A DNA stretch of 64,000 bases from Candidatus Babeliales bacterium (GTDB lineage: Bacteria; Babelota; Babeliae; Babelales; JANWKD01): assembly GCA_963762115.1 (NCBI GenBank), contig CAVXJH010000003.1, forward strand, positions 522,418-586,417, written 5' to 3'. The position numbers were made by a program, and so were the translations under genes. How positions within the stretch are numbered: the first letter of the stretch is position 1; every line of letters starts with the position of its first letter. Positions 10,505 to 36,384 of this stretch are shown here, piece by piece. The notes below the pieces were generated by a model that saw only the letters and a list, made by a program, of their open reading frames with translations, did not search any database and had not been told where the DNA came from.

Positions 10505-10919
10505 TGTCATTGCGAGCCAACATTGTTGGCGTGGCAACTCAGCCAATAAAATTCTATTAATGAGATCCCTATGAAACAACCCGCAGTGTACATTATAACA
10601 AATAAAAAAAATGGAGCTCTTTATACAGGAGTAACTTCTAGTCTACTGCAAAGAATTCATCAACATAAAAACAATATAATTGAAGGATTTACAAAACAAC
10701 ATGGTTGTAAATTACTTGTCTATTATGAGCTTTATGACAACATGTTAAAAGCAATTGAGCGTGAAAAACAAATAAAATCAGGATCAAGAATAAAAAAATT
10801 AAAACTAATTGAATCAGCAAATCCTTGTTGGTTTGATTTGTTTGAGCAAATCAATAAAGAAAATTAATAGAATTTTATTGGCTGGGTTGCCACGCCAACA
10901 ATGTTGGCTCGCAATGACA
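10505..10919 (+). mobile_element. REP-bounded GIY-YIG nuclease element, copy 1 (putative autonomous)
   Basis: 57-bp inverted repeats 10505-10561 / 10863-10919 with 1 mismatch, enclosing only a GIY-YIG ORF. Confidence 0.75.
10571..10867 (+). CDS. Stand-alone GIY-YIG nuclease, 98 aa
   Basis: VYI...LYTGVT..L..R..QH...GFT...LVYYE...AIEREKQIK...NP.W.DL pattern; Tyr, Arg, His and Glu catalytic candidates present. Confidence 0.92.
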   Translation: MKQPAVYIITNKKNGALYTGVTSSLLQRIHQHKNNIIEGFTKQHGCKLLVYYELYDNMLKAIEREKQIKSGSRIKKLKLIESANPCWFDLFEQINKEN

Positions 10920-11010
10920 TTTCCGACTATCTAAGTTACCGTTAAAATTGTTTATCACCTACATCGAGTTCGCATTATAACGTTATACACCAAATTCATT
11001 AGGTAAATTC

Positions 11011-11973
11011 ATGCAAAAAGAAAACATTAATAATAAAAATACGAATTTCCAACTCCTCAACACAAAAACAATTCTCGAGGTTATTGGCAACACACCGTTA
11101 GTAAAAGTAGATTTTGGCACACCACCCACCATTTTGGCAAAATTAGAATACCTCAACCCTGGTGGCAGCATAAAAGATCGCGCAGCACTCTTTATGGTTG
11201 AAGAAGCTGAAAAAAAAGGCTTATTAAAACCTGGCGGCACCATTATCGAAGCATCTTCAGGCAATCAGGGCATTGCTGCTGCAATGATTGGCGCTGCTAA
11301 AGGATATAAAGTCATTATCACAACCAACAAAAAATTTAGCCAAGAAAAAATAAATACCATCACCGCCTATGGCGCTGAGATTATTATGTGTCCTTGCACT
11401 GAATTTGTAGAAGATCCACAAAGTTACCACAGTCAAGCAGTCACTCTGCACAAAAACACCCCTAATTCGTTCATGCTTAATCAATATTATAATCTCGCCA
11501 ATTCCCAAGGGCATTATCATTCACTCGGACCTGAAATATGGCAACAAACCCAAGGCGCAATAACTCATTTTTTTGCAGCTTCAGGAACCTGCGGCACCAT
11601 CACTGGCGTCGGCAGATATTTAAAAGAACAAAATAATGCGGTAAAAGTCATTGCCGTTGATGCGGTGAATTCATATCGCAGCACGCAAGGACACCCAAAA
11701 CCTTACTCTTTAGAAGGCATTGGTGTCGATTTCGATGCACCGATTTTGAATGCTTATCAATCATGTATTGATGAATTTTTTTGCGTTTCAGATGATCAAG
11801 GCCTTGCAATGTTAAAAAATATGGCCCGAAATCATGCCATTTTAGGTGGGCCAAGCAGTGGCGCCGTCGCCCACGCTGCTTATGAATATTCAAAAACCCT
11901 TTCTCCCCATGATATTGTTGTGATGATTATTGGCGATTCAGGACGAGCCTATTTGAGCAAAAATTATTATTAA
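11011..11973 (+). CDS. cysK: PLP-dependent cysteine synthase / cystathionine beta-synthase family
   Basis: IGNTPLV, KLEYLNPGGSIKDR, EASSGN, GTCGT motifs. Confidence 0.85.
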   Translation: MQKENINNKNTNFQLLNTKTILEVIGNTPLVKVDFGTPPTILAKLEYLNPGGSIKDRAALFMVEEAEKKGLLKPGGTIIEASSGNQGIAAAMIGAAKGYKVIITTNKKFSQEKINTITAYGAEIIMCPCTEFVEDPQSYHSQAVTLHKNTPNSFMLNQYYNLANSQGHYHSLGPEIWQQTQGAITHFFAASGTCGTITGVGRYLKEQNNAVKVIAVDAVNSYRSTQGHPKPYSLEGIGVDFDAPILNAYQSCIDEFFCVSDDQGLAMLKNMARNHAILGGPSSGAVAHAAYEYSKTLSPHDIVVMIIGDSGRAYLSKNYY

Positions 11974-12219
11974 AATATTCATATTTTACTACATAATGAT
12001 CTCATAAATGGAGGTCTTTCTTAAAAATATTCCCCTTCAAAAAAAGCCTGATTTCTATGGGTGTTATTCCCTTTTAATGTTAGTTTTTTATTTTATTTCT
12101 ATATTTAATTTTTAAAAATATTATTAATAATATTGCAAATTGAATTTTATATATGCTATCTTATTAGTAACAATAGCGTTGAAGATAGAGTAAAAACCAA
12201 ATACTAAAAGGGGAATCCT

Positions 12220-12654
12220 ATGAAAAAACAGTTATTATTTCTTGCACTTGTTGCCGGAATAGTTACTTCATCAGTTCAAGCAATGAGCAGCGTCGAAAAA
12301 ATTGATGCAGCAGAACAAAAATTTATGAGTCAATTTAGAGAACTACAACATGAAACCATAAATAAATTACAAAAGCTCTTTAACGACAACAAGAATTATA
12401 AATTTAATATCGATAGAGAATGGAGCCAAATACAATCAAATCTTCAAACATACGCTGGTAAAGGTTCACTCGGTGTTCCTGCAAGGATGGGAATACTCGC
12501 AGAAAAAATTTATAACATTTTAAAAGAACCTTATAAGCAAATAATGAATGCACAAGCAACGGGAAATGTAGAACAAACAATGAGAAGCCAAAATGCTTAT
12601 AATTTGACCGACCGCGCTTTAGTATTGGCTCACTTATACTATGATAAAAAATAA
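12220..12654 (+). CDS. Hypothetical secreted protein
   Basis: Signal peptide ending VQA followed by MS; RBS present. Confidence 0.7.
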   Translation: MKKQLLFLALVAGIVTSSVQAMSSVEKIDAAEQKFMSQFRELQHETINKLQKLFNDNKNYKFNIDREWSQIQSNLQTYAGKGSLGVPARMGILAEKIYNILKEPYKQIMNAQATGNVEQTMRSQNAYNLTDRALVLAHLYYDKK

Positions 12655-12677
12655 AACTAGATTTATACGCTAAAAAT

Positions 12678-12714
12678 AAAAAACCCATTGCCCTCAAAAG
12701 CAGTGGGTTTTTTT
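12678..12714. terminator. Bidirectional intrinsic terminator
   Basis: aaacccattgc / gcagtgggttt stem with A and T tracts, between convergent genes. Confidence 0.75.
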
Positions 12715-12764
12715 ATAAAAAGGAACAGCGTACCTTGTGCACTTTAAAAAAACAACAGTAAAAA

Positions 12765-13808
12765 TTAAAGTTCTTTATAAGAAGATTCAAGAATACGCGC
12801 ACTTTTGCTTGATGCAGAATCAAAAAAAAGCTTTTGTCCCAACGGCGGCACATGCAAATGAGCATGATTAAGTTTATCACTATTCAACTGCCACCAAGCA
12901 TGTAACTGTTCAATCGGTGTATGAACTGCATCAAGGCCAAAATGAAACGTACCCCAATGCATAGGAATAAAATGCTTTGCCCCTAACGTTAAAAACGCTT
13001 CTCCTGCCTCTTGAGCATTAATATGAGAATGCTGCATCCACTTTCTTGGTTCACAAGGACCAACGGGCAATAATGCGATATCAATAGAAGGGAATACTTT
13101 TGCAATATGCTCAAAATGATGCCAATTGGCTGTATCACCGCCAAAATAAAGGCGATAGCCCTTATATTCTATGAGCCAACTACCCCATAATGATCGATTT
13201 CTATCAAACAATGAACGTTGTGACCAATGGTAAGCGGGTAAAAAATAAAAACGAATTATTTCATCAGATTGCCCAACACCGGCAATTTCTTGCCACCATT
13301 CAGCTTCATGTACTTTGTCAAAAGCACGTTTTTGGAACCATTTTTTATCACCTTTTGGCACAAGCACGCGAGGCTGCTGAACACGCATATGCAATAAACT
13401 CTTGCTATCCATATGATCGCGATGATTATGAGAAAGCAACACATAATCTATAACCCCAAGATCAGACAACGAAATGCCTGGAGGAGCAATACGACGAAAC
13501 AAAAGAGAGGCATCACCAAAAATAGGATCCGTGATTAACGTTATTGTGCCAAGCTTTATTAAAAAAGTTGAATGCCCAATCCACGTAATTTCTATGTCAC
13601 CTGAAGAAAAAAGTGGCCCTTTTTGGGTTTGCGGCACTAAAAAACTGCTTTTTTGCGCAAAAAAACGCCTTTTGGCCCACGATTTCGTAAACATCAACAA
13701 TGAATGAAGAAATACGCCTCTTGATTTTTCATGTTCAAGATTATAATAACGATTATTTTTTTTATAGGGAGTAAGAAAATGAGCATGAGCTTTGGATGAA
13801 ATTACCAT
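12765..13808 (-). CDS. Metallo-beta-lactamase-fold hydrolase (NAPE-PLD/RomA-like)
   Basis: WIGHST, TDP, SHNHRDHMD, HWSQR, GDT and PMHWGTF motifs; start position inferred. Confidence 0.88.
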   Translation of the reverse strand: MVISSKAHAHFLTPYKKNNRYYNLEHEKSRGVFLHSLLMFTKSWAKRRFFAQKSSFLVPQTQKGPLFSSGDIEITWIGHSTFLIKLGTITLITDPIFGDASLLFRRIAPPGISLSDLGVIDYVLLSHNHRDHMDSKSLLHMRVQQPRVLVPKGDKKWFQKRAFDKVHEAEWWQEIAGVGQSDEIIRFYFLPAYHWSQRSLFDRNRSLWGSWLIEYKGYRLYFGGDTANWHHFEHIAKVFPSIDIALLPVGPCEPRKWMQHSHINAQEAGEAFLTLGAKHFIPMHWGTFHFGLDAVHTPIEQLHAWWQLNSDKLNHAHLHVPPLGQKLFFDSASSKSARILESSYKEL

Positions 13809-14022
13809 TGCCGTTTCCAAAAAGAAACCCCCATCCAGACGCGAAGTCAAGGACAGGGGAAATGGAGGTTATCTATTTAAAATTGTGCTTAAAACACTTA
13901 GTTAATGTACACTGAGTTTTAATAAAAAGCAAATTATTTATTGATATTATTCTCTTTTTTTGAATTCATCAAGTCAATAACATAGCTTACATATCTAATT
14001 TTAATTACAAATGGCTAATTTG

Positions 14023-15144
14023 TCAATAGATTTTGTCAGAATATTTAATATTTCTCAAATAAATATTTTCATACCCATTTTTCATAGCTTCCAGGGAAAG
14101 ATCATTTTTTACCGTTTTATAGGCATTTTTACCCAATAAAAGAGCATTTTGCCTATCAAACATGAGTGATTTTAGGGCATCTTTTAAAGCTTTTGCATCC
14201 CCGGAAGGCACCAATAAACCATTCACCCCCTGTTGTATCACCTCATGGGTCATTTTTTCATGGGTAGAAACACAAGGAAGAGAAAAACTCATTGCCTCTA
14301 AAAGAGCAACTGATATGCCCTCTTTATATGATGAAAGAGCAAAACAATCAAAAAGAGGATAATAACCATATGATTGTTGACCAATAATAAAAATAATTTT
14401 ATGAGCTACACCCAATCTTGAGGCCAAAGCGCGCAAATGCTGTTCTTCAGGGCCAGAACCAAGAAGAACAAGTCGTGCATGCTCACTCTCACGAGCAAGG
14501 AGCGCAAAAGCTTCTAGCAAAAGACCATAATTTTTTAAAGCCACAAAGCGCCCAACAGATCCAATGACAAAATGATTTTCTTCTAATCCCAGACTCTCAC
14601 GACTTTTAACGCAAAGCATACCGCGCTCTTTAATGCCCTGAGCAGGTACGCCATTTTTTATGGTGGTAATGGTGCCAATAGGCACGTTATGATGTTCAAC
14701 TAATGAAGACGCAACGCCATTGGAAACAGCAACCAACTCAGTGGCCATCCATTGTGAATAACGATCAAGCATGCCACGCATCATGCCATCTTGATCAACA
14801 TTATTATGAAAACTATTCAAAACAGGAATGCCAAGTAATTTTCCGATAATTCGTCCTGCTATGTTGGCCGACCAAAGCCAGGTATGCAGCAACGAAGGCT
14901 TTAATGTTTTTATGCATGTGTATAACCGAAAGAAAAAAATAGGATCATATAAACACAAAGCCCCTTTAATAGGAAACAAAGGAATTTTTAACTGCCGTAA
15001 TCGCTCAACATTGGGTCCTTCATGAAAATAGATCACGGTAACATCATACTTTTCACGATCAACAGATGCTAAAAAATCACACAGAAGCGATTCAGCGCCA
15101 CCCATTTTTAAACTCGTAATAAGATGCACTATCAACATTTTCAT
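14023..15144 (-). CDS. GT4 family glycosyltransferase
   Basis: GGAE, GR...K and EG...LLEAM motifs. Confidence 0.9.
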   Translation of the reverse strand: MKMLIVHLITSLKMGGAESLLCDFLASVDREKYDVTVIYFHEGPNVERLRQLKIPLFPIKGALCLYDPIFFFRLYTCIKTLKPSLLHTWLWSANIAGRIIGKLLGIPVLNSFHNNVDQDGMMRGMLDRYSQWMATELVAVSNGVASSLVEHHNVPIGTITTIKNGVPAQGIKERGMLCVKSRESLGLEENHFVIGSVGRFVALKNYGLLLEAFALLARESEHARLVLLGSGPEEQHLRALASRLGVAHKIIFIIGQQSYGYYPLFDCFALSSYKEGISVALLEAMSFSLPCVSTHEKMTHEVIQQGVNGLLVPSGDAKALKDALKSLMFDRQNALLLGKNAYKTVKNDLSLEAMKNGYENIYLRNIKYSDKIY

Positions 15145-16721
15145 TATGCATGCCCTTTAAGCAACGCTTCCTGTTCTTTTTTTAATCTTTTTTTATCAAC
15201 TTTGCCAAGTGCGGTCATAGGCAAATCAGGAAGACAAATAATATGACGGGGAATTTTATACGGTGCTAAATGTTGCTTGCATAATGCCTTGAGTGCTTTT
15301 TCACAATCAGGGTTATTCTCTCGAACGGCAACAAAAGCAATAGGGATTTCTCCTGTTAATTCATCTTCTTTGCCAATCACACCAGCCTTAAAAACTGCCG
15401 GATGTGACATCAATACGTTCTCAATTTCAGGTGGATAAATATTAAATCCTTTATGAATAATAAGATCTTTAAAGCGACCTGAAATAACCAAATTTCCACG
15501 TGTATCAAAATAAGCAAAATCGCCGGTATCCAACCAACCATCAACAAGCACTTGAGCGGTATGTTCTGGCGCATTATAATAGCCAAGCATAACATTATCA
15601 CCCTTCACCCATAAGATGCCTATCTTTCCCTTTTGGACTTCTTTTCCCGTTGTTTCATCGCGCAAAGAAATGTGAACACCAATTGCAGGCTTACCAATAG
15701 TATTGGTTGCTTGTACAATATCATCAACATCGCCGGCAATAAACGGTGAGCTTTCAGTCAATCCGTACCCATTACACATTTTTCGACGATAAATAAGTTC
15801 AAAACCAGCACGAATTTTATCAGGAAGTGCATCACCACCACAAATAACATACCGCACCGTTGAAAAATCTAAATGTTTCATCATGCACAATAAACCATAT
15901 AATGTTGGCACGCCCAGCATAATCGTTGGCGCATGACGAAATCCATCAAGAATCCATTTACGCTCAATTTTAGGCACAACAATAACACTCGCACCAAGAA
16001 ACATACTACTCCACACACATGAATTTTGTGCAAAACTATGGAATAACGGCAATATGCCAAATATGCGATCTTCATGACTTATTTCAATCGTCGCAGTAAT
16101 TTGCGCAACATTCGTGAGCAGATTTCTTGAACTCAACATAACCCCTTTAGGCAATCCTGTGGTGCCAGAAGTGTATAATAATGCCGCCATCAGATCAGGA
16201 TCAATCAGCGGTATTTCATATTCTTTTAATGGCGCTTCAGAAAACTCTTCAACATTTTTTAATACCGGTTCAATAAACACGAGCGGCAGCACCATACCAT
16301 TGTGCTCCAATGCCGAAAGCTTATGAGAAAATTCTTCTGAAACCACGAGTGCAACAGGTTGTGAATCATTAATAACATGTGCCAATTCTTTTTCAGTAAT
16401 AAAAGTATTCAATGGCGCTACAACAGCACCAGTCTGCCAAATACCAAAATACGCACTATAATATTCAATTGAATTTTCAAAAAGCAAACATACTCTATCA
16501 TGCGGCTTAATTCCTTTTTCAAGCAAATCACGCGTTACTCGCAATGAATGATGATACAATTGTAAAAAAGTAATGCTCACATCCTTGCAAATTAATGCTG
16601 TTGCATGCGGAAATCGCTTTGCAGCACGTTGTAATAAGCACCCTGCAAAAATCATACGGTTATTTTCATGCATTGCTTTATAATAATTATTAAAGCGTTC
16701 TTCCCGTGTTATTGTCGCCAT
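15144..16721 (-). CDS. Long-chain fatty acid--CoA ligase
   Basis: YTSGTTGLPKG, GYGLTE, TGD and GKVDK adenylation motifs. Confidence 0.9.
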   Translation of the reverse strand: MATITREERFNNYYKAMHENNRMIFAGCLLQRAAKRFPHATALICKDVSITFLQLYHHSLRVTRDLLEKGIKPHDRVCLLFENSIEYYSAYFGIWQTGAVVAPLNTFITEKELAHVINDSQPVALVVSEEFSHKLSALEHNGMVLPLVFIEPVLKNVEEFSEAPLKEYEIPLIDPDLMAALLYTSGTTGLPKGVMLSSRNLLTNVAQITATIEISHEDRIFGILPLFHSFAQNSCVWSSMFLGASVIVVPKIERKWILDGFRHAPTIMLGVPTLYGLLCMMKHLDFSTVRYVICGGDALPDKIRAGFELIYRRKMCNGYGLTESSPFIAGDVDDIVQATNTIGKPAIGVHISLRDETTGKEVQKGKIGILWVKGDNVMLGYYNAPEHTAQVLVDGWLDTGDFAYFDTRGNLVISGRFKDLIIHKGFNIYPPEIENVLMSHPAVFKAGVIGKEDELTGEIPIAFVAVRENNPDCEKALKALCKQHLAPYKIPRHIICLPDLPMTALGKVDKKRLKKEQEALLKGHA

Positions 16722-16805
16722 ACAAATACCTTTTTTTATATCTATAAAAACCTGAATTTTCTCAAAAATATAATAATATTGTGCAATGTAAATGATAGAC
16801 TAGAA

Positions 16806-16917
16806 CGTCATTCTGAGGCAACTTGTTGCCGTAGGAATCCAGTCAATAAAGTTACTTCCTTAAGTAATTACATAATAAATTCTGGATTACTACGTCGCTA
16901 CGCTCCTCATAATGACA
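16806..16917. repeat. CGTC/TGTC REP doublet without a gene (REPIN-like)
   Basis: cgtcattctgag-hairpin-gtaggaatccag facing ctggattactac-hairpin-ctcataatgaca. Confidence 0.8.
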
Positions 16918-17047
16918 CTAAGGCATGCACACGCCACTTTTGCTAATGTATATTCATTTACATGCATCTATATCTTGCTATACTAATACATACTAAAAAT
17001 AATAGTTATATTTTTATTTTCTTAGCATACAATCAAAATAAATAATT

Positions 17048-17704
17048 ATGAAATTAACAAAAAGCGGCATGCTCATTGCGTGCGAAGGCATTGATGGATC
17101 TGGCAAATCAACGCTCGCAAAGGCATTATTCGCCCATTTTTCTGCTCAGCATATTCCCGTACTTTTAACAAAAGAACCGGGAGGAACTTTATTTGGCATG
17201 CAATTACGCAGTATCTTACAAGATCCTATGGTGAAACGATGCTCAAAAGCAGAATTTTTATTATTCGCCGCTGATCGCGCACAACATTTTCAAGAAGTTA
17301 TTATGCCGGCACTTGCTAGCGGAACACTCATTATTTCTGATAGACTTGCCGATTCTTCTTTGGTGTATCAAGGATTTGGTCGTGGACTTGATCATGCAAT
17401 GATTGAACAGATCAACATGTGGGCAATGAATAATCATAAAGCTGATATCACCATCTATCTTCGCGTTACTGCGCAAACAGCTTTTGATCGTATTACGCAA
17501 AGAAATGAAAAAGCAACAGCGTTCGAACAAGAAAGCAAAGATTTTTTTAATCGACTCATTAACGGATTTGATACACTCTATGCAAATCGTTCTGATGTTC
17601 TTATTATCGATGGCGCCACAACACAAGAAGAAATTGCTCAAGAAACGAGTATGAAACTTACACACATGATAGCAAAAAAGCTCAAGGAACATGCACATGA
17701 TTAA
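17048..17704 (+). CDS. tmk: Thymidylate kinase
   Basis: EGIDGSGKST, KEPGGT, FAADRAQH, DR..SS.VYQG motifs. Confidence 0.95.
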   Translation: MKLTKSGMLIACEGIDGSGKSTLAKALFAHFSAQHIPVLLTKEPGGTLFGMQLRSILQDPMVKRCSKAEFLLFAADRAQHFQEVIMPALASGTLIISDRLADSSLVYQGFGRGLDHAMIEQINMWAMNNHKADITIYLRVTAQTAFDRITQRNEKATAFEQESKDFFNRLINGFDTLYANRSDVLIIDGATTQEEIAQETSMKLTHMIAKKLKEHAHD

Positions 17705-18422
17705 TGCTATCCCTCCTGCTCAACTATGGATTGGCAACGCAAGCACCTTACAAAAACAGGCAAAACAGTATTTGCAACAGCACTTGTGTACCTTACATGC
17801 CTGCACCATATGCGCTCACTGTAAAAACATAGAACAAAAGCAACATGCATCATTGTTATGGCTAACACCAGAAAAAAACTACACGCTTGAATTACTTGAA
17901 CCAATAAAACGCGTTGTTGCTTTTTGCTTAGAAGATGATCAAAAGTATTTTATCATTATTGAACATGCTCACCTTTTGTCTCCCGCGTGTGCCAATAGTT
18001 TATTAAAAGTGCTTGAAGAACCGCCGCGCGGCTATCATTTTATTTTGCTCTCGCAGTCGCTTGATGCGCTATTACCCACAATTCAATCACGCTGTTTTAT
18101 TGCAACTATTGCAACACACAGCAGTGACACTTTTACCCATGATATTGTTTATGCACTTACGGCACAAAAATTACCAACTGCTTTTGATTTTTTACAAATA
18201 CTCGAAAAAACAGCACCAGATGACGTGACTTCGATAACGCTTGTTGAACAAATTTTGGCATATTGGCTCGAACAGTATAAAATGAGTGTTGTAGAGAATA
18301 ATAATGAGCAACAAAAAAAAGCTTCTTTAATGATTGGTGTTTTGCAAAAAGGATTGTTGCAACCACCCATGCCGGGAAGCAGTAAGATATTTTGGAAAAA
18401 TGTTTTTTTACACTGTGTATAA
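17697..18422 (+). CDS. holB: DNA polymerase III delta' subunit (divergent, short)
   Basis: C..C..C zinc motif, ANSLLKVLEEPP, LLPTIQSRC; follows tmk. Confidence 0.85.
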   Translation: MINAIPPAQLWIGNASTLQKQAKQYLQQHLCTLHACTICAHCKNIEQKQHASLLWLTPEKNYTLELLEPIKRVVAFCLEDDQKYFIIIEHAHLLSPACANSLLKVLEEPPRGYHFILLSQSLDALLPTIQSRCFIATIATHSSDTFTHDIVYALTAQKLPTAFDFLQILEKTAPDDVTSITLVEQILAYWLEQYKMSVVENNNEQQKKASLMIGVLQKGLLQPPMPGSSKIFWKNVFLHCV

Positions 18423-18445
18423 ACTTTTTATGTTAGGGAATTTTC

Positions 18446-19183: not shown

Positions 19184-19207
19184 AATAGAAGTATAAAAAA
19201 TAATAAA

Positions 19208-19249
19208 AAACCAGAGAGATCATCAAATAAACAGTGATCTCTCTGGTTT
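19208..19249. terminator. Terminator hairpin between convergent genes
   Basis: aaaccagagagatca / tgatctctctggttt. Confidence 0.7.
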
Positions 19250-19276: not shown

Positions 19277-22237
19277 TTATTTTTTTCTATGCTGCAAACT
19301 ATCAAGAACTATATTTATTTCATTATTTAATTTTTCATGATTACTCTGTACTTGTTGTGCTGAAATAGATTGCGATATTTGTTCAGAAACAGGTGGTAAT
19401 CCTGATAAAGAATTTTGTATCCCTAAACTGCTTACACTTCTAGTATGCTCAGAAAACAGCCCTACAAAAAGAGGTTCTATTTCTATTATCTTATTCTGAC
19501 TATTGGTTATACTTTCTTTTTTTTGAGCAAAAGTACTTTTATCTTTTTGCTCGTCAATCACAGGTAATACAGGTGCAGTATTTGATTTCAAGTTAGAATA
19601 ATTTTGACTGTCATTATCACTTATCTTAGTATTAAACATATCCTTAAAATTCCAAGGTTTTTGATCGGTAAACAAAATATGTCGATTATTTAATTCTTTA
19701 ACAAAATATTTTTTTCCATTAACTTCTATGGGCTTTTTCTTTGCATTATTAAGATATTCTAATATTGTCATTTTATTACCAATCTTATAAGGAACATTTA
19801 AATCTGCTCCTTGTTCAATCAGGAGTTTTACAATGTCAGGATCAAAATCAATAAATGCATATTGCAATGGGGACATCTTACCATCACTTACATTAACGTC
19901 AGCCCAATACTTTAATAAAAGTACTATTGCAGGTATGGATTTAGCCTTAATTGCATTTATTAATGCTGTACCTCCTTTATTACATGCATTTTGATTTATT
20001 CCCAAATCAAGAAAAATTTTAAGGAGTTGCAAATCTTCAGTACGAGCAGCGATCATAAATGTTGCAGCACAACTAACATCATTAATATCAGCACCATTAA
20101 CAATTAAAAATTTTGCCGCCAAATCATTATACTTTTCAATTGCATATACTAAAGGTGTTTTATTGTAACGATCGCAAGCATTAATCAATGCTCCTTTACT
20201 AATCAAATAATCGATTATTTCAAGGCAACCAAAATTTGCCGCATACATTAACGGCGTTATTTTATCATTATTAGTTGCATTTGGATTAGCACCATAATCA
20301 AGCAATAATTTAACAAACTCAAAATTCTTAAAGGTAATTGCATGCATTAGCAATGTTGAACTATCTTTATAACGTGTATCAATACTATTAGTTTTGGTTA
20401 ATAAAAATTTAATAGCTCTTTCCAAATCAATATTCTCTTTGCACAGAACATCATGTGCTGTTTTAAAGTTCCCATTTATTAATGCAATAACAAATTTTTT
20501 AAGATGAATATTATTTTCATTTGGTTGTTGATTTTCAACAGGAGCAGAAGCTTGTTCTTCTAAAATAGGTTGCACATCCACTGCAAGAGCACCATCAAGC
20601 ACTTCAAGCTGTTGATTTGATTGGTCTCCGGCTGTGAAAACATCGTCATCTTTTTTTTCTAATTCTTCTTCATCAGAAATTTTTAACTCTGCGTCTTCAT
20701 GATAACTATCTTCATCTGAAAATTCTAAGGTAGGCATTTCTTCCTGAGCTAGTTGCTCAATTTCCTTTAATTTTGCTCGCAAGAAATTTTCAACCTCACG
20801 ATCCAAGAAATTTTCAACCTCATTATCTATGGTTTTTTTTTTATTTGCATGTAAGGGACTTGTTATTACCGTTTCATCTTCAATTATAGCTCCCTGACTT
20901 ACCAAATATTCAACTATCATAAGCGCACCTTTTTTGGCAGCAGAAAAGAGTAACCCATAATTTCTATAATCTTTGACGTTAACATCTGCACCAAGCTCCA
21001 CCAATTTTTTAACTATATTCAAAATATTAACATTTTCAGGGGCATTTTTATCTAATATTGAAACATAATTTTCTATAACATAAAATAATGCACTTTTTCC
21101 CCATTTATCTTGAAAATTAACATCCAATTCTTCATCATTAAGAAGCAAATCAACAATTTCTTTCGTGCTATAACAAAGGGCAGTTATTAAGGGCACCGTG
21201 CCTTCTTTAGTCGTAGCATTAATATTCGCACCTTTTTCTAACAAAAGTTTTACAATCTCAAAATGCTTGCTTGATATAGCGATCATGAGTGGCGTAACAC
21301 GTCCTAAAATCCATAAATCAATAGCTATATTTTTATGATTAATTAATGCTTTTACAATCTCAATATGACCATAACCAACTGCCTTTGCTAAAATGGTGTA
21401 ACCAGCAACATCTCGCGCATTAACATCAACTTTTGGATCATTAATTAATGCAACGAAGGTTTCAAGGTCATTATTAAAAACTGCCATCATTAAAGATGAC
21501 CATTCCTTACCAATTTGAGCTCGTTTTTTCCCTGCTGCTTTTTCTTGTAATTCTTTTTTTACTATTTCATCTAATATTCTTTTTTGTGTTTCAATCATCA
21601 CTTTTTTTGGATGACTTACCGCTCTTTTAGTGTATCGCATTGGATGTTTGGCAGCTTTAAAACCTTCTTTTATACCCAGTTTTGCCATATTCATACCAGA
21701 TCTTGCAGCCCGCGCCAATTTATTTTTTGTGGTTACTTTTTCTACTTTTTCTGGCTCTTTTTCTTTTTTTTCTTCTGATGGTGTTAAAGATAGATTATAT
21801 TCATCTGCTATTAGATGCTTTACAATTAGAATATAAGAAAACCCATAAGCAAGAGTAAGAGCAGTATCGCCATTCATATCTTGTATATCACCACGAGCGC
21901 CTTTATCTATTAAACGATGTGCAAAATCCTTATTTCCTTTTAGAATTGCCCATGATAATGGTGTTAAACCCTGTTTATCTTGAACATTAACATTGACTTG
22001 TAATCCGATAAGCTTAAAGAAAAGAGTAAAGTCATTGTGCTGAGCAGCAAAAATCAATGGTATTATGCCAAGGACATCAGGTTTATTAAGGTTTTCACCT
22101 TGGCTTATACGAGTTTGAATGCTTCCTCTTATGGTATCAATGTTATCGATGTCATCGATGTTCATTTCCATACCAAAAATTGGCGAAAAATTAGCGATGG
22201 TGAGAAAAATGGTTAATAAAATAATATGTTTCTTCAT
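19277..22237 (-). CDS. Large signal-peptide ankyrin-repeat protein
   Basis: Three blocks of ankyrin repeats separated by basic and acidic linkers; AAGGA RBS. Confidence 0.92.
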   Translation of the reverse strand: MKKHIILLTIFLTIANFSPIFGMEMNIDDIDNIDTIRGSIQTRISQGENLNKPDVLGIIPLIFAAQHNDFTLFFKLIGLQVNVNVQDKQGLTPLSWAILKGNKDFAHRLIDKGARGDIQDMNGDTALTLAYGFSYILIVKHLIADEYNLSLTPSEEKKEKEPEKVEKVTTKNKLARAARSGMNMAKLGIKEGFKAAKHPMRYTKRAVSHPKKVMIETQKRILDEIVKKELQEKAAGKKRAQIGKEWSSLMMAVFNNDLETFVALINDPKVDVNARDVAGYTILAKAVGYGHIEIVKALINHKNIAIDLWILGRVTPLMIAISSKHFEIVKLLLEKGANINATTKEGTVPLITALCYSTKEIVDLLLNDEELDVNFQDKWGKSALFYVIENYVSILDKNAPENVNILNIVKKLVELGADVNVKDYRNYGLLFSAAKKGALMIVEYLVSQGAIIEDETVITSPLHANKKKTIDNEVENFLDREVENFLRAKLKEIEQLAQEEMPTLEFSDEDSYHEDAELKISDEEELEKKDDDVFTAGDQSNQQLEVLDGALAVDVQPILEEQASAPVENQQPNENNIHLKKFVIALINGNFKTAHDVLCKENIDLERAIKFLLTKTNSIDTRYKDSSTLLMHAITFKNFEFVKLLLDYGANPNATNNDKITPLMYAANFGCLEIIDYLISKGALINACDRYNKTPLVYAIEKYNDLAAKFLIVNGADINDVSCAATFMIAARTEDLQLLKIFLDLGINQNACNKGGTALINAIKAKSIPAIVLLLKYWADVNVSDGKMSPLQYAFIDFDPDIVKLLIEQGADLNVPYKIGNKMTILEYLNNAKKKPIEVNGKKYFVKELNNRHILFTDQKPWNFKDMFNTKISDNDSQNYSNLKSNTAPVLPVIDEQKDKSTFAQKKESITNSQNKIIEIEPLFVGLFSEHTRSVSSLGIQNSLSGLPPVSEQISQSISAQQVQSNHEKLNNEINIVLDSLQHRKK

Positions 22238-28549: not shown

Positions 28550-30413
28550 GCTTATCGCCTGCCAATAAAATAAATTCATTGCTGCCCGCTTGATAAATAA
28601 GTGGATAATTTTCAAAGCTCACTGGACCAGATAAAAGCATATCCAATCCATGTTTCCCCAACGCATTTAACGTTTTGCTTCCACCCTTTGTCTCAAAAAA
28701 ACCATCAGCGCCATACTGTTGTATGAACTGAGTAATCTCTTGTGTTATTCCTGACTTATTAGTTTGATAGGCAACAATCCAAGCAATTATTTTTTTATCC
28801 AAATCATCAGAAAATTTTTGCAATTTTTCTTTATCACTACTAATTTTTTTTGCATCCAAGAATGTAGCAAATAATCCACTTAATTGATCAATGCGTAACA
28901 ATGCTGGAGGAATTTGATAATAATAAGGCCCATACCCAAGTCCTCGTGGGCTAAAACGATCAACTAATAACACAAGACCTTTTACGCCAGAATTTCCATT
29001 ACCCTTGGTATCATCAATAATTCCTTTGAGATTAGGTTTTACGGCAGAAAGAACCGTGGCAGCATCAAACGTCGACACCTTCACAACCGGCTCAAGAGCA
29101 TCTTGTCCTATCACCCCATCTGTAAGTCTTTTTAGAAATGCTTTTGCCTTTACATCATCTTGAGTCGCGACAAAAACAACCAAAAGAGAAGATTTTTTTT
29201 CAGAAATTTGTGGCCGCAACAATGAAAAGTCAACAACATCCCCCGCTTTAATTTTTTTCTGAAATAATGAGTCTTTGGTTGTATATGAAATCCACACTTG
29301 TCCATTCGGCTCAAAAGGCATATCAGTATCTTTTGGATCCATCTTTTTTTTATAATCATCAGGAGATTGATACCACACATGACATTCCAGGGGATTTATA
29401 TCACGCACAACATTTTTTTTTGCATCTGCACCAAGTGTTTGCGGATAATGTCCAAGCGCTAATCCTTGCATGCCAACATCAAAATTTTGACCATTTTGAA
29501 AAACCTCATAGGTATATAACATAGGCTCACTGGGGATAAATTCTTTTGGTTTTACCGGATTAGGTTGCATGCCGCAAATTGCTTCCGGCATAAGTGGCAA
29601 TGAAGCAAACACCGTTGACCCATCTTTCAAGAACGTTAAAAAACGTTTTTCAGTGCCCTCTTTTGCTGGACGTATTGAATCTTTCACAAGACTATCTGAA
29701 CTGAGCAAACTAAAAGAACCTGGTTCTAACGTTGCTTGATATGTTTGGCCATTTTTCATAAATTTCAAGATAGCTGATTGCGCTGCAGAATTAGTAAACA
29801 CGCCATTAAATTCATTTGTTGTAGTTTTAATGCCCAAATATTCAGCCTTTGGCACTGTTTTATCGGTGTATACGCGGTAATAATACACATTATTAGTCAT
29901 ATCAGGATACGCAATATTTTTTCGAAATATCGTATTCCAATTTGTTGGATTGGCAGGTTTTTTGGTGGCACTATATGATTCATATAAACCAGGATTATTC
30001 ACATCAATTTGAAGAGCAACTTTAAAATAAAGATCCATGTGCCAAAAAAGACCATTTTGCACACCACCAACATATTGGTATGGCTGCACAACTTCTGCAC
30101 GAATAGTATCACCATCAAAATCAATACCCATCACTTTTTTGACATCTTCTATAACAGCATTTATAGGCCCTGGCGAATCATTCCAAACCATCACCGAATA
30201 ACTACAACCACCCGCCATGATACATTTACCTGAAAATGTTGCAGCAATACCAGTACCGAAATTCTCACCATAATCTTTTACTGAATTCCACGCACCATTG
30301 AATGCGCCTGTCAATTGATCAACACCATCATCAGCGTTAGTAATTATTATTTGCATGCAAATAATAATTACTAAACCAAGCTTAATAAGTATATTACTTC
30401 TACTACCAATCAT
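28527..30413 (-). CDS. Large secreted hypothetical protein
   Basis: 628 aa ORF, signal peptide, AAGGAG RBS. Confidence 0.7.
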   Translation of the reverse strand: MIGSRSNILIKLGLVIIICMQIIITNADDGVDQLTGAFNGAWNSVKDYGENFGTGIAATFSGKCIMAGGCSYSVMVWNDSPGPINAVIEDVKKVMGIDFDGDTIRAEVVQPYQYVGGVQNGLFWHMDLYFKVALQIDVNNPGLYESYSATKKPANPTNWNTIFRKNIAYPDMTNNVYYYRVYTDKTVPKAEYLGIKTTTNEFNGVFTNSAAQSAILKFMKNGQTYQATLEPGSFSLLSSDSLVKDSIRPAKEGTEKRFLTFLKDGSTVFASLPLMPEAICGMQPNPVKPKEFIPSEPMLYTYEVFQNGQNFDVGMQGLALGHYPQTLGADAKKNVVRDINPLECHVWYQSPDDYKKKMDPKDTDMPFEPNGQVWISYTTKDSLFQKKIKAGDVVDFSLLRPQISEKKSSLLVVFVATQDDVKAKAFLKRLTDGVIGQDALEPVVKVSTFDAATVLSAVKPNLKGIIDDTKGNGNSGVKGLVLLVDRFSPRGLGYGPYYYQIPPALLRIDQLSGLFATFLDAKKISSDKEKLQKFSDDLDKKIIAWIVAYQTNKSGITQEITQFIQQYGADGFFETKGGSKTLNALGKHGLDMLLSGPVSFENYPLIYQAGSNEFILLAGDKPKDWPAK

Positions 30414-30593
30414 ATCAAACTCCTTGTATTCTTTTTTTATTTTCTAAAAAAAGCATACAGAAATCGTTTATGTTCATGCAATTACTTTGAAAAGATTCCA
30501 TAAAGTTTTGTACATGAATAAAACTATTGCCAATTTTTAAACCAATTTATTAAATTAAATAAAATTAAAAAATTATAAAAAAGGAACTTAAAA

Positions 30594-32026
30594 ATGAATT
30601 TTAAAAAATTATTTTTTATTTTGTTTTATTTTGTACTACTACAAAATTTTAACCTCAATGGCATGGAAAGAACATCACTCTATGAAATTTTAGAAGTAAA
30701 CAAAAATGCAACACCCGCAGAAATTAAAAAAGCATATTTCAAGTTAGCTAGACAATGGCATCCCGACAAATGGGAAGATAAAGCAAAGGAAGAAAGAGAT
30801 GTCGCGGAAGAAAAATTCAAAGAAATTTCTAGCGCCTACGAAATATTAAGTGATGAACAAAAAAGAAAACACTATGACAAATTTGGTGGTAAAGCCAAGG
30901 AAGAAGGGTCTTCACAAGAAAAAGCAAACCAACTAAATGAACAACTTGATGCCCTGAAAAATATACTCGACTACCAACAACAATTTGTGCTACTCGATGT
31001 AATACTTAATAATCTCGCTAACATATATGATGAAAATCTTGATAACAGAGCTTTGAATGCAACATATGATTTAGCAAATGACTATTTCAGAAAACAAGAA
31101 TATGATAAGGCGTATCAACTGTTACAATTGGGTATCGACAATGCCATTTACTTGCATTATCCAGCTCAATATGACCGATTCATGCAAGCATATTCTTATC
31201 TTGAAGAAACTGCAAAGCGAACACCACAAAGACAATTTATACCCAAACCTCAAAAAGGTGAACACTATGCAAATATACATTTAACTGACTTTAAACATGC
31301 AAATAAAGATACGCCTGAAAGCAAAGAATATTTTCTCAAACAGGCCCTCGATGCCACTGAAGGTATTTTTATTTCTAAAGAATTGATGCAACGTTTTATT
31401 GAAGCATTCAAAGAACTTATTCAAATCTATCAAAAAAAAATAATACTGAAAAAGTAAACCAATACACAGAAATAATGTCTACAAAAATAGAAGAATGGAA
31501 AGATCTACAAGCTGAAGAATTGGAACAAAATAAATCACACAAAGAAAAGATGATAAAAGAATATGGAGAACAAGTTCGAAAAATGAATGAACAAGAAGCA
31601 AACACTTCAGTTAAGCGAAAATTATTTGATTTTTTTGAATCACCGGTAACAGAAACCAAAGAATGGTATATTGACCACGTTCTCATTGCACTCAACCATT
31701 TCAAACCTTCTAGTCCAACCATAAAAAAAAGCATTCTGGATGCCCTCAAAGGGCTTATTCAAATCTATCAAAAAGAAAATAATTCTGAAAAAACAAAGCA
31801 ATATGCAAAAATAGGATTAGCAAAAGCACAAGAATGGAGTTTTGAATCATTTGAAAAAGAATTTGAAACTATTTTACAAGAGAAAAAACCTGCCGCAAAA
31901 CCCCATCGCGAAGAAAAAAAACCGCAACAACCAAAACAAGAACCATTAAAAACAGAGTTAACAAAAAAATTGCAGGAATTATACACTACGTTAAAACAAT
32001 TAGAAATGGCTTTAAACAACAAATAA
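30594..32026 (+). CDS. Secreted J-domain protein split by a frameshift in an A9 tract (31432-31440)
   Basis: [24 protein letters not shown]-domain. One added A joins 30594-31457 to 31475-32026 and restores an internal repeat. Confidence 0.75.
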
Positions 32027-32337
32027 TTAACCTAAAGATTATTAAATAGTCGCACATCAACAAGAAAAAATAGTTGATTAAAGCCACGAAAATTCTCGAA
32101 GTGGTATATTTTCTATAAAAGTGGCACGGCCTGTGCTACTTTTTCACTTGTAGAAGATTATTATATAGGTTTGCCCTGAAAAAACCCTTTAGAACCCTTG
32201 CTTTTTTGAAGGCAAATCTGTTACGCTTAAAATAATAATATTCTATAAATTACTCTCGAACTCCAATAATCATTATGTTAATTTTTTACCACTTGCATAC
32301 AATTGCAAATATTTTTTAATAATCAAGGAGAAATCTC

Positions 32338-32817
32338 ATGAAAAAACTTATTATTGCAGCGATGCTGCTTTTAATCAATGGCGTATCAGTAAATCTTATT
32401 AATGCACAAACCGTTATACCAAAAACTCCAGCAATACCTGCCATTCCAGAAACTGCGAAAGAGTATTGCGTGGTTTTACAAGAAGTGCAACAAGCATTTG
32501 ATAATAAAAAAGCCAAAGAATATATAAACCAACTTGCTAAAGAGCAAAAAGAAAACGAAGCTAAAACAAAAGAAGCAACAACAAAGAAAGAAAAAGAAGA
32601 AGCAGCAAAAAAAGCTCTCGATCTCGAAACAAAGGCACAATTAGTTAATGCAATTGCGAAAAATATCTCAGACCAAATAGCACTCGATGTAGTTGGACGC
32701 AAAAAAACTCAAGCAGAACAATCAAAAGCAAAAGAAGAACATCAAGAAGCCCAAGACCTTGCTGATGCTGCAAAAGTTACTGCTAGAACTGCTGTAAAAG
32801 CTGTTATTGTGCAATAA
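32338..32817 (+). CDS. Secreted helical hypothetical protein
   Basis: AAGGAG RBS and signal peptide. Confidence 0.7.
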   Translation: MKKLIIAAMLLLINGVSVNLINAQTVIPKTPAIPAIPETAKEYCVVLQEVQQAFDNKKAKEYINQLAKEQKENEAKTKEATTKKEKEEAAKKALDLETKAQLVNAIAKNISDQIALDVVGRKKTQAEQSKAKEEHQEAQDLADAAKVTARTAVKAVIVQ

Positions 32818-32888
32818 ACATCAGAAAATATTAATACAAGGGCTCTTGTTCTATACTTGAGCCCTTGATTCCATAAAAAGGAGCTCTC

Positions 32889-33305
32889 ATGTTTAAACAA
32901 AAAATTATGGTAGTTTTATGCCTATTCACTCTTATTCCATTTAACTTAAAAACAGCAATGGTCACCAAACAAGAATGTGTCGACAGAATTGAACAATTTA
33001 AAAAAAGTGAAAATACATTAAATGCATATCTTACAGACATTCGCAATGATTTTAACAACTTTGAAAATGAAGTTAAAAATATAGTAACCCGTGCAAAAAC
33101 AACCGTTGAAAAAATTGGTGGCAACGCGCAAGCAAAATCTTATAAAGAATTCGCTACGCTAAAAAAGAAATTGAAAAACAAAATTCGTGCATTCGAAACA
33201 ATACTAAATGACCATGTTTTTATGATATTAATGATCGAAGATTGCTACTTTAATCGATTAATAAGTCGTGAAAAATATGAAAACCTATTTCAATTAAACC
33301 AATAA
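32889..33305 (+). CDS. Secreted hypothetical protein
   Basis: AAGGAG RBS and signal peptide. Confidence 0.7.
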   Translation: MFKQKIMVVLCLFTLIPFNLKTAMVTKQECVDRIEQFKKSENTLNAYLTDIRNDFNNFENEVKNIVTRAKTTVEKIGGNAQAKSYKEFATLKKKLKNKIRAFETILNDHVFMILMIEDCYFNRLISREKYENLFQLNQ

Positions 33306-33318
33306 AGGAGATAATCTA

Positions 33319-33939
33319 ATGAAAAAACTTATTATTGCAGCGATGCTGCTTGTATTAAATATAATACCGTTAAATTTCATTAATGCTGTTGAAACAATAA
33401 GCCCTAAAGCTAAGGCGGCATTTGATCAGATAACTAAAGTTTGGAACTCCAATGAAAAAAACTTAAGAGACTTTGATAGAAATGTCATTAATAATGGCAT
33501 AAACAATATCAGTGAAACAATAAATAAATCATTACAAAACATCAATACTCAAATTTCACTAGCAGAAATTCTTAATTTAATAAAAACCCTAAAGGATCAA
33601 AAAACAACTCTTAAACCTATTTCAACAACATTATCAAATGAAACATCGCAGGCTCTCAAAAATATTTTTAATGCAACAAAAGATTTCTATAAAAAACTTA
33701 TTGAAACACAAAAAATTGTCGTAAAGGCACAGGCTGAACCAGAGCTGATTGGCAATATGACAAGTTTTGATAAACTGGCACAAGGTATTTTGGTTATTAT
33801 CAAAAGTGCCGTTGAAGATCATAATGCCAATCCTGCATTGTTACCTTTAAAGCTTACTAATAAAGAAAAGGAGCAAGAAAAAAAGGCTTTTGATGAGTTA
33901 AAAAATACAAAATTATATGAAGTAATTATCAAAAAATAA
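33319..33939 (+). CDS. Secreted hypothetical protein
   Basis: AAGGAG RBS; first 33 nt identical to gene at 32338. Confidence 0.7.
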   Translation: MKKLIIAAMLLVLNIIPLNFINAVETISPKAKAAFDQITKVWNSNEKNLRDFDRNVINNGINNISETINKSLQNINTQISLAEILNLIKTLKDQKTTLKPISTTLSNETSQALKNIFNATKDFYKKLIETQKIVVKAQAEPELIGNMTSFDKLAQGILVIIKSAVEDHNANPALLPLKLTNKEKEQEKKAFDELKNTKLYEVIIKK

Positions 33940-33961
33940 ATCAAGTCAAAATACATCTTTT

Positions 33962-33991
33962 AAAAGTAGCACAGGTTGTGCTACTTTTTTT
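33962..33991. terminator. Terminator hairpin
   Basis: aaaagtagcaca / tgtgctacttttttt. Confidence 0.7.
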
Positions 33992-34038
33992 GCATTCTAA
34001 AAAAATATATTAAAGCTTATGCAGTTACTTTGAAAAGA

Positions 34039-35922
34039 TTAGCTCAAAATCACCAACGCATTCGGATCATAGCGATTATCAAGAATCTCACCAGTTTTGG
34101 CATGCACACAATATTCTTTAAGCGAAGGATCATAGGAAAATTTTTTCTTGCCAAAAGGTATCGACATATACAATTTCTTCCAAATAGGAAATGCCGTTCG
34201 TATAGCATACACATTATTGCCCAGTGACTCATTTTCATCACAACCAATATAAACACCGGTGATCAATTCTGGCGTCGCACCAATAAACAAACATGTTCTT
34301 GAATCATTATTTGTTCCTGTTTTACCGATTGCCTCTGAATCGATCCACTGAGACCCATTACGTTTTTGTGCACGATCCATACCAATACTTAATACCTTTA
34401 CCACCTGACCATTCACGCGAGAATTCAAAGCGGTTTCTTGATGCGGATGCACGGTAAAAATCTTGTGACCCCATTCATCTTTTATCCAACGAATATAATG
34501 TGGTTCTATATAAATACCGTTATTGGCATATACATTAAACATACCAACAGCATCTTTAAGAGTACCATCAACACACCCAAGTGCTAATGATGGATATGGG
34601 TGCAAGGTCGCTTTTATGCCAAAACGAGGAACCATATTCATCACTTTTTCATAACCAACTGATAATAACGTTTTTATTGCAATAATATTGTTTGAATATG
34701 CAAGCGCACGAGCTAATGTCATTTCACCTTCAAATTTACGATTATGATTTCTAGGATTCCATGTGTTAAGGTGAATAGGTTCATCAATTTCTGTTTGTGC
34801 AAAATGCGCTCCTTCTTCAATTGCTGCAGCATAAATAAGAGGTTTAAAAGTAGAACCCATTTGTCGGCGAGCTTGCAAAGCTCGACTAAATTTAGAAACA
34901 GAAAAATCAAAACCGCCGATAAGAGCTTTGATATAACCCGTTTTCACCTCCATTGAAATTAAAGCACCATCAACTACAGGATTTTTTTTACGCAAGAGGA
35001 TAATTTGTTCTTTGAACGCATTTTCTGCTACCTGCTGAATAGCACGATTCAACGTGGTTTGTACAACATAACCGCCGGTATATATTTTTTTCTTGCCAAC
35101 AATTTCTTCTAATGCCATGCGAACTGCTTCTTTTAAATGCGGTGCGCACAAATCAGTTTCATGCACCACAAGATGAACCTCATTCAATTTTGCTTGTGCG
35201 TATTCTTCTTGTGTTATAAACTTCTGCTGCAGCATTGAATGTAAAACAACATTTCTTCGCTTTTGTGCCGATAAAGGATATTTGAGAGGACAATAGTGAG
35301 AAGGATTTTTAACAATACCCGCCAATAATGCAGCTTGATCAAGCGAAATTCCAGCGGCTGATTTACCCCAAAACCGTTGGCTCGCGGCTTCAACGCCATA
35401 AATACCAAAACCAAAAAAAACATGATTAAGATATGTTTGCAAAATATGCTCTTTGCTAAATTGCTGCTCAACAACTAATGCAAACAATTGATCTTTTATT
35501 TTGCGCATAAAAGTACGTTTTGAATCAGTAAAAAGTAATTTTACCAATTGCTGCGTTATAGTGCTTGCGCCCTGCACAATTCTTCCGTGATACATGTTAA
35601 TACATAATGACCGAAGAATACCTTTCCAAGAAATACCGTGATGTTGGAAAAATGCATGATCTTCAGCAGCAACAAATGCTTGAATAAGATGTGGGGACAT
35701 TTGCTGCAATGATATTGGCAAACGGCGATCCAAAGCAAATCGCGCCCATTCATTACCTTGATCATCGAGCAACACCGTTGGCTTTCCAGGATTATATTGT
35801 TCCAAAACACTCAAATCAATAACGGTGTTTTGCACAAAAAAGAAGAATGAGCCCATCAAACAGGAGAACAATAAACTATTTATAATAAGAAAAGTTCTAA
35901 TAATTGACATAACGTTTAACAT
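34039..35922 (-). CDS. Class A penicillin-binding protein (PBP1A family)
   Basis: EDHAFFQHHG, GASTITQQ, STFK, SNN, KTG motifs. Confidence 0.93.
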   Translation of the reverse strand: MLNVMSIIRTFLIINSLLFSCLMGSFFFFVQNTVIDLSVLEQYNPGKPTVLLDDQGNEWARFALDRRLPISLQQMSPHLIQAFVAAEDHAFFQHHGISWKGILRSLCINMYHGRIVQGASTITQQLVKLLFTDSKRTFMRKIKDQLFALVVEQQFSKEHILQTYLNHVFFGFGIYGVEAASQRFWGKSAAGISLDQAALLAGIVKNPSHYCPLKYPLSAQKRRNVVLHSMLQQKFITQEEYAQAKLNEVHLVVHETDLCAPHLKEAVRMALEEIVGKKKIYTGGYVVQTTLNRAIQQVAENAFKEQIILLRKKNPVVDGALISMEVKTGYIKALIGGFDFSVSKFSRALQARRQMGSTFKPLIYAAAIEEGAHFAQTEIDEPIHLNTWNPRNHNRKFEGEMTLARALAYSNNIIAIKTLLSVGYEKVMNMVPRFGIKATLHPYPSLALGCVDGTLKDAVGMFNVYANNGIYIEPHYIRWIKDEWGHKIFTVHPHQETALNSRVNGQVVKVLSIGMDRAQKRNGSQWIDSEAIGKTGTNNDSRTCLFIGATPELITGVYIGCDENESLGNNVYAIRTAFPIWKKLYMSIPFGKKKFSYDPSLKEYCVHAKTGEILDNRYDPNALVILS

Positions 35923-35967
35923 TAATTTTATAGTGATAAATAATTAGTAAAATAACCAAAATAATCA

Positions 35968-36384
35968 AAATGTCATTGCGAGGCACATTGTGCCGTGGCA
36001 ACCCAGCTTATAAAATTCTATTTATTTTTCCTTATTAAGTTGTTCATATAAATCAAACCAACAAGGGTTTATTGATTCAATAAGCTTCAATTTTTTTGTT
36101 CTTGATCCAGACTTTATTTGTTTCTCTCGTTCAATTGCTTTTAACATATCTTCATAAAGCTCATAATATACAAGTAATTTACAACTGTATTGCTTTGTAA
36201 AGCCGTCAATCATATTATTCTTGTGCTGAAAGACTCTTTGAAAAAGATTAGAAGTTACACCCGTATAAAGTGCACCATTTCTTTCATTTGTCATAATATA
36301 TACAGCTGCTTGTTTCATATGAATCTCATAGTAGAATTTTATAAGCTGGGTTGCCACGGCACAATGTGCCTCGCAATGACATTT
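35968..36384 (-). mobile_element. REP-bounded GIY-YIG nuclease element, copy 2 (putative autonomous)
   Basis: Perfect 53-bp inverted repeats 35968-36020 / 36332-36384 enclosing only a GIY-YIG ORF. Confidence 0.75.
36022..36318 (-). CDS. Stand-alone GIY-YIG nuclease, 98 aa
   Basis: 79/98 identical to 10571-10867 with no gaps; true start is MKQAAVY. Confidence 0.92.
   Translation of the reverse strand: MKQAAVYIMTNERNGALYTGVTSNLFQRVFQHKNNMIDGFTKQYSCKLLVYYELYEDMLKAIEREKQIKSGSRTKKLKLIESINPCWFDLYEQLNKEK

Follow-up and report, generated by a model that had tools for sequence, protein, structure and literature searches.

A Ssn-family nuclease cassette with bulged CGTC/TGTC-tagged hairpins in Candidatus Babeliales and its association with IS982-derived miniature elements

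SsnA of Neisseria meningitidis (94 amino acids, cd10448) binds the hairpin of the NTS repeat and cuts just upstream of it, acting on single-stranded DNA (ssDNA) only (Chenal et al. 2025; PMC11893778). Cutting is abolished by the substitutions Y6A, Y17A and E64A, and in N. meningitidis SsnA lowers the integration of transforming DNA that bears NTS. An SRM motif lies on both sides in 42% of SsnA homologues, and the NTS-ssnA-NTS arrangement was likened to insertion sequences (IS) and to transposases associated with repetitive extragenic palindromes (REPs), mobility being put forward as a hypothesis only (PMC11893778). Here we describe two genes of this kind, each between inverted CGTC/TGTC-tagged hairpins, in a stretch of 64,000 nucleotides from a Candidatus Babeliales bacterium (contig CAVXJH010000003.1, positions 522,418 to 586,417; hereafter the window). 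We lean slightly towards the view that IS982-derived miniature elements, with the transposase supplied in trans, were the main carriers by which the cassette and its gene-less derivatives spread in this lineage, while the Ssn protein binds and cuts the hairpins.

Two other groups of elements bear on this comparison. CGTC-tagged REPs have been said to lack a dedicated transposase, and dimers embedded in other palindromes have been noted in H. neapolitanus (PMC3733652). The hairpins described here resemble them in the CGTC/TGTC tag, the AT at the stem base, the CCA tail and the occurrence as dimers; unlike CGTC-1 to CGTC-4, with stems of 8-9 bp and loops of 4-5 nt, they have interrupted stems and longer loops (PMC3733652). 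IS982 elements are about 1 kb long and have 5'-AC ends (PMC7335449). [quoted passage not shown] What sets the miniature elements of this lineage apart is their load, a hairpin dimer or a whole nuclease cassette; no such cargo is mentioned for the Cardinium MITEs in the accessible portions of these papers.

Membership of the Ssn family and hairpin type

The protein encoded in the window (P0001) shares 52% identity with the SsnA orthologue of N. gonorrhoeae (L021) over 94% of the query (E 5e-25). This orthologue, which was compared in place of the N. meningitidis sequence, is a 94-aa open reading frame (ORF) among NTS repeats and agrees with the published Y6A/Y17A/E64A mutagenesis primers (PMC11893778). 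Residues Y7, Y18 and E65 align with the catalytic Y6, Y17 and E64 of SsnA and are invariant across 11 aligned sequences. PF01541 is the only domain found (58 bits for copy 1 and 54 bits for copy 2; cut-off 22.6), the homologue that comes closest among those with a title (L089, 83%) belongs to Candidatus Babeliales, and no relative of solved structure was found at E<=0.001. Judged by sequence comparison, both window genes are members of the published Ssn family. Like the Ssn/NTS systems, they encode a single-domain GIY-YIG protein of ~95 aa with the same catalytic Y/Y/E spacing and have tagged hairpins on both sides, and the presence of the gene tracks the number of repeats. Unlike those systems, the hairpin is bulged with an inner stem and residue 71 is Gly instead of Trp. 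The pairing of nuclease and hairpin and the analogy with IS and with REP-associated tyrosine transposases (RAYTs) are already published and not new. The new elements are the bulged-hairpin sub-clade, the empty sites, the amplified deletion derivative and the IS982 shells, the last three of which are not described in the accessible portion of the Ssn paper (PMC11893778).

The published SRM pattern has no exact match in the genome of the window (G000), and the four cassette ends would need 4-5 substitutions to fit it; it matches 2 of 74 ssn loci from GTDB and none of 61 from metagenomes. Because the SRM motif occurs on both sides in only 42% of homologues, this mismatch marks a variant and does not exclude the genes from Ssn. 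Inward bulged hairpins lie on both sides in 42 of the 74 GTDB loci versus 4 of 139 control windows, and in 28 of the 61 metagenome loci versus 0 of 83 controls, in samples that are biased by the search peptide EKQIKSGS and from which 6/80 GTDB and 18/79 metagenome loci were dropped for short flanks. In a quick tree of 119 proteins, L021 falls in a group of 22 rows with Trp71, which has perfect-stem hairpins in 18/18 typed rows, and every substrate in the oligonucleotide list of the Ssn paper is likewise perfect-stem (PMC11893778). The other 97 rows show bulged hairpins in 79/80 typed rows (21 rows are untyped overall). As read from alignment and tree, the bulged hairpin type is tied to a Gly71 sub-clade. 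Residues 70-75 are a candidate hairpin specificity loop and, by analogy with SsnA, the protein would bind the hairpin as ssDNA and probably cut a few nucleotides 5' of the tag. Co-evolution of residue 71 with hairpin type was set aside as a lead only, the table holding essentially one split; once the motif columns are dropped, starred branches offer only two pairs that are independent (sign test p 0.5), and four changes are needed for the Trp group.

Cassettes and gene-less derivatives

The features of the window that concern this system are the following (window positions; G001 is a same-genus genome consisting of one contig).

10571..10867, forward strand: ssn gene copy 1, a 98-aa single-domain GIY-YIG nuclease with Y7, Y18 and E65 and the motif KSGSRIKK at 69-76
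10505..10561, forward strand: left arm of copy 1, a TGTC-tagged bulged hairpin (10505-10541) with an AT-rich tail
10863..10919, reverse strand: right arm of copy 1, with hairpin 10883-10919, overlapping the stop codon
10453..10465, forward strand: IS982-type terminal repeat at the left end of the copy 1 shell, agreeing with the consensus at 12/13 positions and placed 53 bp outward of the hairpin tag
10963..10975, reverse strand: IS982-type terminal repeat at the right end of the copy 1 shell, 12/13, placed 57 bp outward of the tag and followed by no clean TSD
36022..36318, reverse strand: ssn gene copy 2, 98 aa
36332..36389, reverse strand: upstream arm of copy 2, with hairpin 36347-36381
35963..36020, forward strand: downstream arm of copy 2, with hairpin 35971-36005
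35919..35931, forward strand: weak IS982-type repeat (11/13) at the end of the copy 2 downstream arm, ambiguous
44382..44519, no strand assigned: gene-less inward hairpin dimer, its spacer resembling both ends of the ssn cassette interior
16806..16917, no strand assigned: inward dimer without a gene, made up of variant hairpins of the TCTGAG/TATGAG type; the matching G001 interval is without hairpin
63322..63424, no strand assigned: gene-less inward dimer of variant hairpins
48037..48182, forward strand: two same-strand hairpins, 48037-48071 and 48143-48182
50241..50275, reverse strand: single hairpin

A first-pass annotation, made from the letters of the window, had reported two 98-aa GIY-YIG genes with 79/98 identical residues, each in a unit of ~415 bp bounded by inverted repeats, with no TSD visible and no DDE or HUH transposase in the window. 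Most of this description stands. The copies are identical at 79/98 residues, the repeats of copy 1 (10505-10561/10863-10919; 57 nt, 98%) are where they had been placed, and its stop codon (10865-10867) falls within the right repeat. The repeats of copy 2 are also present, although slightly longer than had been given, and run from 35963-36020 to 36332-36389 (58 nt, 98%), with TGTC tags at 35971 and 36381. The inverted repeats bound a unit of about 415 bp as proposed, but the unit is often larger than this: homology and an IS982-type terminal repeat reach ~55 bp beyond the TGTC ends, so that copy 1 spans 10453-10975 (523 bp). Neither window copy has a clean TSD, and the scan of window ORFs (17 + 41, short shadow ORFs left out) brought up no transposase family. 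An upstream ATG at 36429, which reads through the hairpin, is an unlikely start for copy 2. The weak repeat at 35919..35931 could alternatively belong to a long direct repeat, now decayed, where the neighbouring gene for a penicillin-binding protein (PBP) starts. G000 holds only these two ssn copies, the next tblastn match having an E value of 0.056.

The hairpin family of G000 comprises 76 copies at 50 loci by a strict pattern, versus 0 in each of 5 Markov shuffles, so the flanking repeat is not a product of chance. A relaxed pattern gives 89 copies and 33 inward dimers, and the loops that flank the two window genes are among the two types met most often (12 and 7 identical cores). Seven gene-less dimers, selected from the dimer and remnant lists of G000 and representing at least 7 loci, share one junction, at which the pre-ATG leader is joined to the segment coding for KLKLIES. 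Of 7 non-gene matches to this segment, 6 are no more than 200 bp away from a hairpin, a zone that makes up 1.7% of G000; no ssn remnant of the KLKLIES type was seen in G001. As the shared junction indicates, at least seven dimers trace back to a single internal deletion of the cassette that was amplified, and represent a non-autonomous derivative.

Among 161 genomes of the order, 39 of them with an ssn match, at least 10 hairpin-pattern matches were found in 17/39 ssn-positive versus 3/122 ssn-negative genomes, the relatives in this sample not being independent and many of the assemblies being fragmented. The three repeat-rich exceptions are G050, G033 and G071, of which the latter two have only other GIY-YIG types. 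An intact ssn gene was not found in G050, which has 94 hairpin matches; internally deleted ssn remnants (L205, L206) lie there between tandem bulged hairpins, beside IS982-type ends.

Lineage-specific sites and IS982-type shells

G000 and G001 share 868 reciprocal best hits with a median identity of 69%, and synteny is kept in 690 of 867 adjacent intervals. At none of the six ssn loci, two in G000 and four in G001, is the gene present in the other genome. For five of them the orthologues on either side lie near each other there, without the gene (gaps of 21, 21, 200, 445 and 485 bp), and the sixth interval contains unrelated ORFs; the copy 1 interval in G000 also contains a 108-aa ORF without a G001 match. 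The repeat is absent from the other genome at 18/34 scoreable loci of G000 and 68/85 of G001 (16 and 22 further loci, respectively, were not scoreable). Thus, cassettes and gene-less dimers are mobile and occupy lineage-specific sites. A closer relative has the cassette at the copy 2 site (L233), next to a PBP gene product that is 87% identical, so the copy 2 insertion predates the split from this relative. Contigs from 4 sequencing runs did not span the unit, and no joints were seen in them.

The insertions exceed the hairpin-to-hairpin span by 80-170 bp. Flank similarity above control reaches ~50 bp outward from the repeat, and the outer arms terminate in the motif ACRYGAAYTCGAT, usually after TA. 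This motif was found in 41 of the 161 genomes, including several with no ssn match and at most 3 hairpin matches. Elements of ~1 kb in G040, G058 and G004 (L214-L216) have it as their terminal repeat; two elements of this size encode transposases above the IS982 cut-off of NF033520 (240 and 253 bits versus 130), and two ACRYGAAYTCGAT-ended ones show 6-bp TSDs. In G000 and G001 together, 24 of 99 inward dimers have IS982-type terminal repeats on both sides, 25-75 bp outside the hairpins; both ends reach at least 11/13 in 8/33 and 16/66 dimers, whereas in controls a single side does so in 2.75% and 1.5%. Of these 24 shells, 6 are bounded by perfect TSDs of 6-7 bp and another 5 by TSDs with one mismatch, the null from mismatched pairs being 0/56 and 1.3% of 240 for perfect TSDs and up to 12.5%, in G001, for one mismatch. 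For a further shell, G001:C1:1329560-1329784, the site in G000 is cleanly empty and holds one TSD copy; in the ssn-derived dimer C6:376498-376792 both repeats are complete and the duplication measures 9 bp, one of them mismatched; and the G004 shells L222 and L223 enclose dimers and have perfect 7-bp TSDs. Homology between the downstream arms of three non-orthologous cassettes continues as far as the repeat position. Shells free of hairpins are nearly absent: G000 has one candidate of ~81 bp (C6:160447-160527), and none was seen in G001.

The mechanism that we slightly favour would start from an Ssn-family nuclease gene between two inward hairpins, which are likely bound and cut as ssDNA. In a subset of dimers the hairpin pair is enclosed by IS982-type terminal repeats and 6-7 bp TSDs, and an IS982 transposase, of which none was found in G000, would have made the shell insertions, that of copy 1 included. 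Nicks by Ssn may keep both ends of a cassette alike and could, more speculatively, now and then cause insertions with long duplications.

Several observations weigh against this proposal. Where TSDs have not survived, two genomes do not suffice to tell gain from loss. In 75 of the 99 dimers no recognisable pair of repeats encloses the hairpins, and 13 of the 24 double-repeat dimers have no TSD. A clean TSD is absent at both window copies and at all four ssn units of G001, and among these six units only copy 1 has both terminal repeats. G000, which is 95% complete, has no match to an IS982 transposase, the single intact IS982 transposase copy of G001 has different ends, and the cognate IS982 copy in G004 is broken. 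The composite of shell and hairpin was found in 4 genomes of family f1 and in G050, with single matches in 5 others, and in none of the remaining 151 of 161 genomes or at any metagenome ssn locus; being limited to a lineage, it cannot explain CGTC repeats in general. 

Viral contigs gave 0 matches to the shell and hairpin pattern. The idea that shells stay while their interiors are replaced was also considered; in only 4/21 cases did the orthologous arm come within the best 10 of 181. Among the top-ranked results of a literature search that excluded subscription journals, none linked IS982 miniature elements with CGTC hairpins or Ssn. The IS200 TnpA and the 463-aa DDE transposase of G000 were rejected as mobilisers, neither having a link to hairpins or ends.

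Alternative mobilisers and wider significance

The first-pass annotation took the nuclease for the enzyme that spreads the TGTC/CGTC REPs, a RAYT analogue built on a different fold. Its expectations of hairpin-flanked homologues, of a correlation between gene and repeat number and of empty orthologous sites were borne out above, and the nuclease is the cognate partner of the hairpins in units that are mobile. That this nuclease is what spreads them is not supported in that form: the clearest insertion signatures here, terminal repeats with 6-7 bp TSDs, match what an IS982 DDE transposase leaves. Like RAYT/REPIN systems, the present one has a gene between inverted tagged REPs and dispersed gene-less dimers; unlike them, its enzyme is of the GIY-YIG type and its tag is CGTC/TGTC, not GTAG. 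RAYTs are HUH/Y1 enzymes that act through a covalent intermediate. No hairpin lies within 400 bp of the 5 Y1 genes of G000, of which the one scanned is an IS200 TnpA below the RAYT cut-off; the five score nearly equally (C3:498763, C5:13616, C6:283117, C6:404294 and C7:24556).

It is unlikely, on balance, that Ssn itself mobilises the units by nicking ssDNA beside the tags, with host repair copying them and IS982 elements serving merely as favoured landing places. Repeat-rich genomes do mostly carry ssn and the exception G050 holds remnants of it, yet 22/39 ssn-positive genomes have fewer than 10 pattern matches. L233 and a second unit, L176, which have no clear IS982 ends, are bounded by perfect direct repeats of 25 and 26 bp at the start of the next gene, unlike the 6-7 bp TSDs of the shells, and this speaks for Ssn and against IS982 as the sole vehicle. 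Direct repeats of at least 15 bp were found around 0/33 dimers in G000 and 0/69 in G001; among 58 other ssn units there were 5 matches, of which L233 and L176 were retained and L007, L303 and L004 set aside as repeat-related or duplicated arms. The orthologous cassettes copy 2 and L233 have different hairpin loops, yet left and right ends match in each, and different hairpin types occur within the same kind of shell (L217, L218). Long direct repeats and matched ends fit nick-stimulated repair, although fold-back template switching could match the ends too. The same explanation can point to the 16/34 G000 repeat intervals that hold a repeat in G001 as well and to the lack of a shell at most ssn loci elsewhere. 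However, SsnA has been demonstrated only to cut, strand transfer or joining not being reported in the accessible portion of the paper (PMC11893778). The near absence of hairpin-free shells does not suit mere landing places, and the near-identity of outer arms at separate loci argues that the whole composite was copied.

A tentative and less probable elaboration of the IS982 reading allows two routes. In it, the mobiliser of the CGTC repeats in family f1 would be a captured IS982 miniature element, with a DDE transposase carrying the Ssn cassette and the derivatives that arose by deletion, and Gly71 Ssn would read bulged hairpins through residues 70-75, its nicks homogenising the ends and occasionally writing insertions with duplications of 25-26 bp. 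Rather improbable is the explanation that dispenses with a dedicated mobiliser altogether, and regards the cassette as a domesticated ssDNA restriction module, scattered by horizontal transfer, recombination between repeats and differential loss. The lowered integration of NTS-bearing DNA in N. meningitidis (PMC11893778) agrees with such a role, as do the lack of TSDs at the window copies and the copy 2 locus, which is shared with L233 and thus vertically inherited there. Differential loss, however, requires six ancestral copies each lost cleanly, two with gaps of 21 bp, and neither the TSD-bounded shells nor the presence of one deletion derivative at 7 or more loci can be had without copying to new sites.

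Other elements were encountered beside those of the ssn system. The small GIY-YIG gene behind the tblastn match at E 0.056 (G000 C5:~10660-10900, reverse strand; 32% to P0001) directly follows a tRNA gene and has its own GC-rich hairpins. Such tRNA-adjacent genes with hairpins are present in three genomes, G000, G033 (L194, L196) and G071 (L192, L197), and possibly represent a second nuclease-hairpin pair that targets tRNA genes. In G033 a gene of another GIY-YIG subfamily (L191, C13:~111300) lies between inward CTCATCCTGAG...CGAAGGA hairpins, and a similar hairpin type sits in the IS982 shell L217 (G040:C87:2890-3090). Window positions 5226-5640 hold a separate repeat element with 57-nt inverted arms (5259-5315/5561-5617) that start with CGGCCCTATGCGGG and with ~10 relatives in G000. 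Four copies of the 463-aa DDE transposase lie inside members of the CGGCCCTATGCGGG family, and one member occupies an interval where G001 has an ssn cassette. The window further contains five ankyrin-repeat genes and a 1433-aa ORF without a Pfam match (257-2584, 6931-7935, 19277-22237, 38571-40488 and 53462-57763). AAA_14 and DUF4143 domains are encoded at 61902-63259 by two overlapping ORFs, possibly one frameshifted gene.

The spread of CGTC-type repeats has been an open question since 2013, and the comparison of related genomes provides evidence that the cassette moves. It also names a concrete vehicle for one lineage, and co-occurrence of nuclease and repeat alone is no proof that the nuclease is the transposase. 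A large sub-clade of Ssn that has another type of hairpin and a candidate loop for specificity matters for the development of Ssn-based ssDNA tools.

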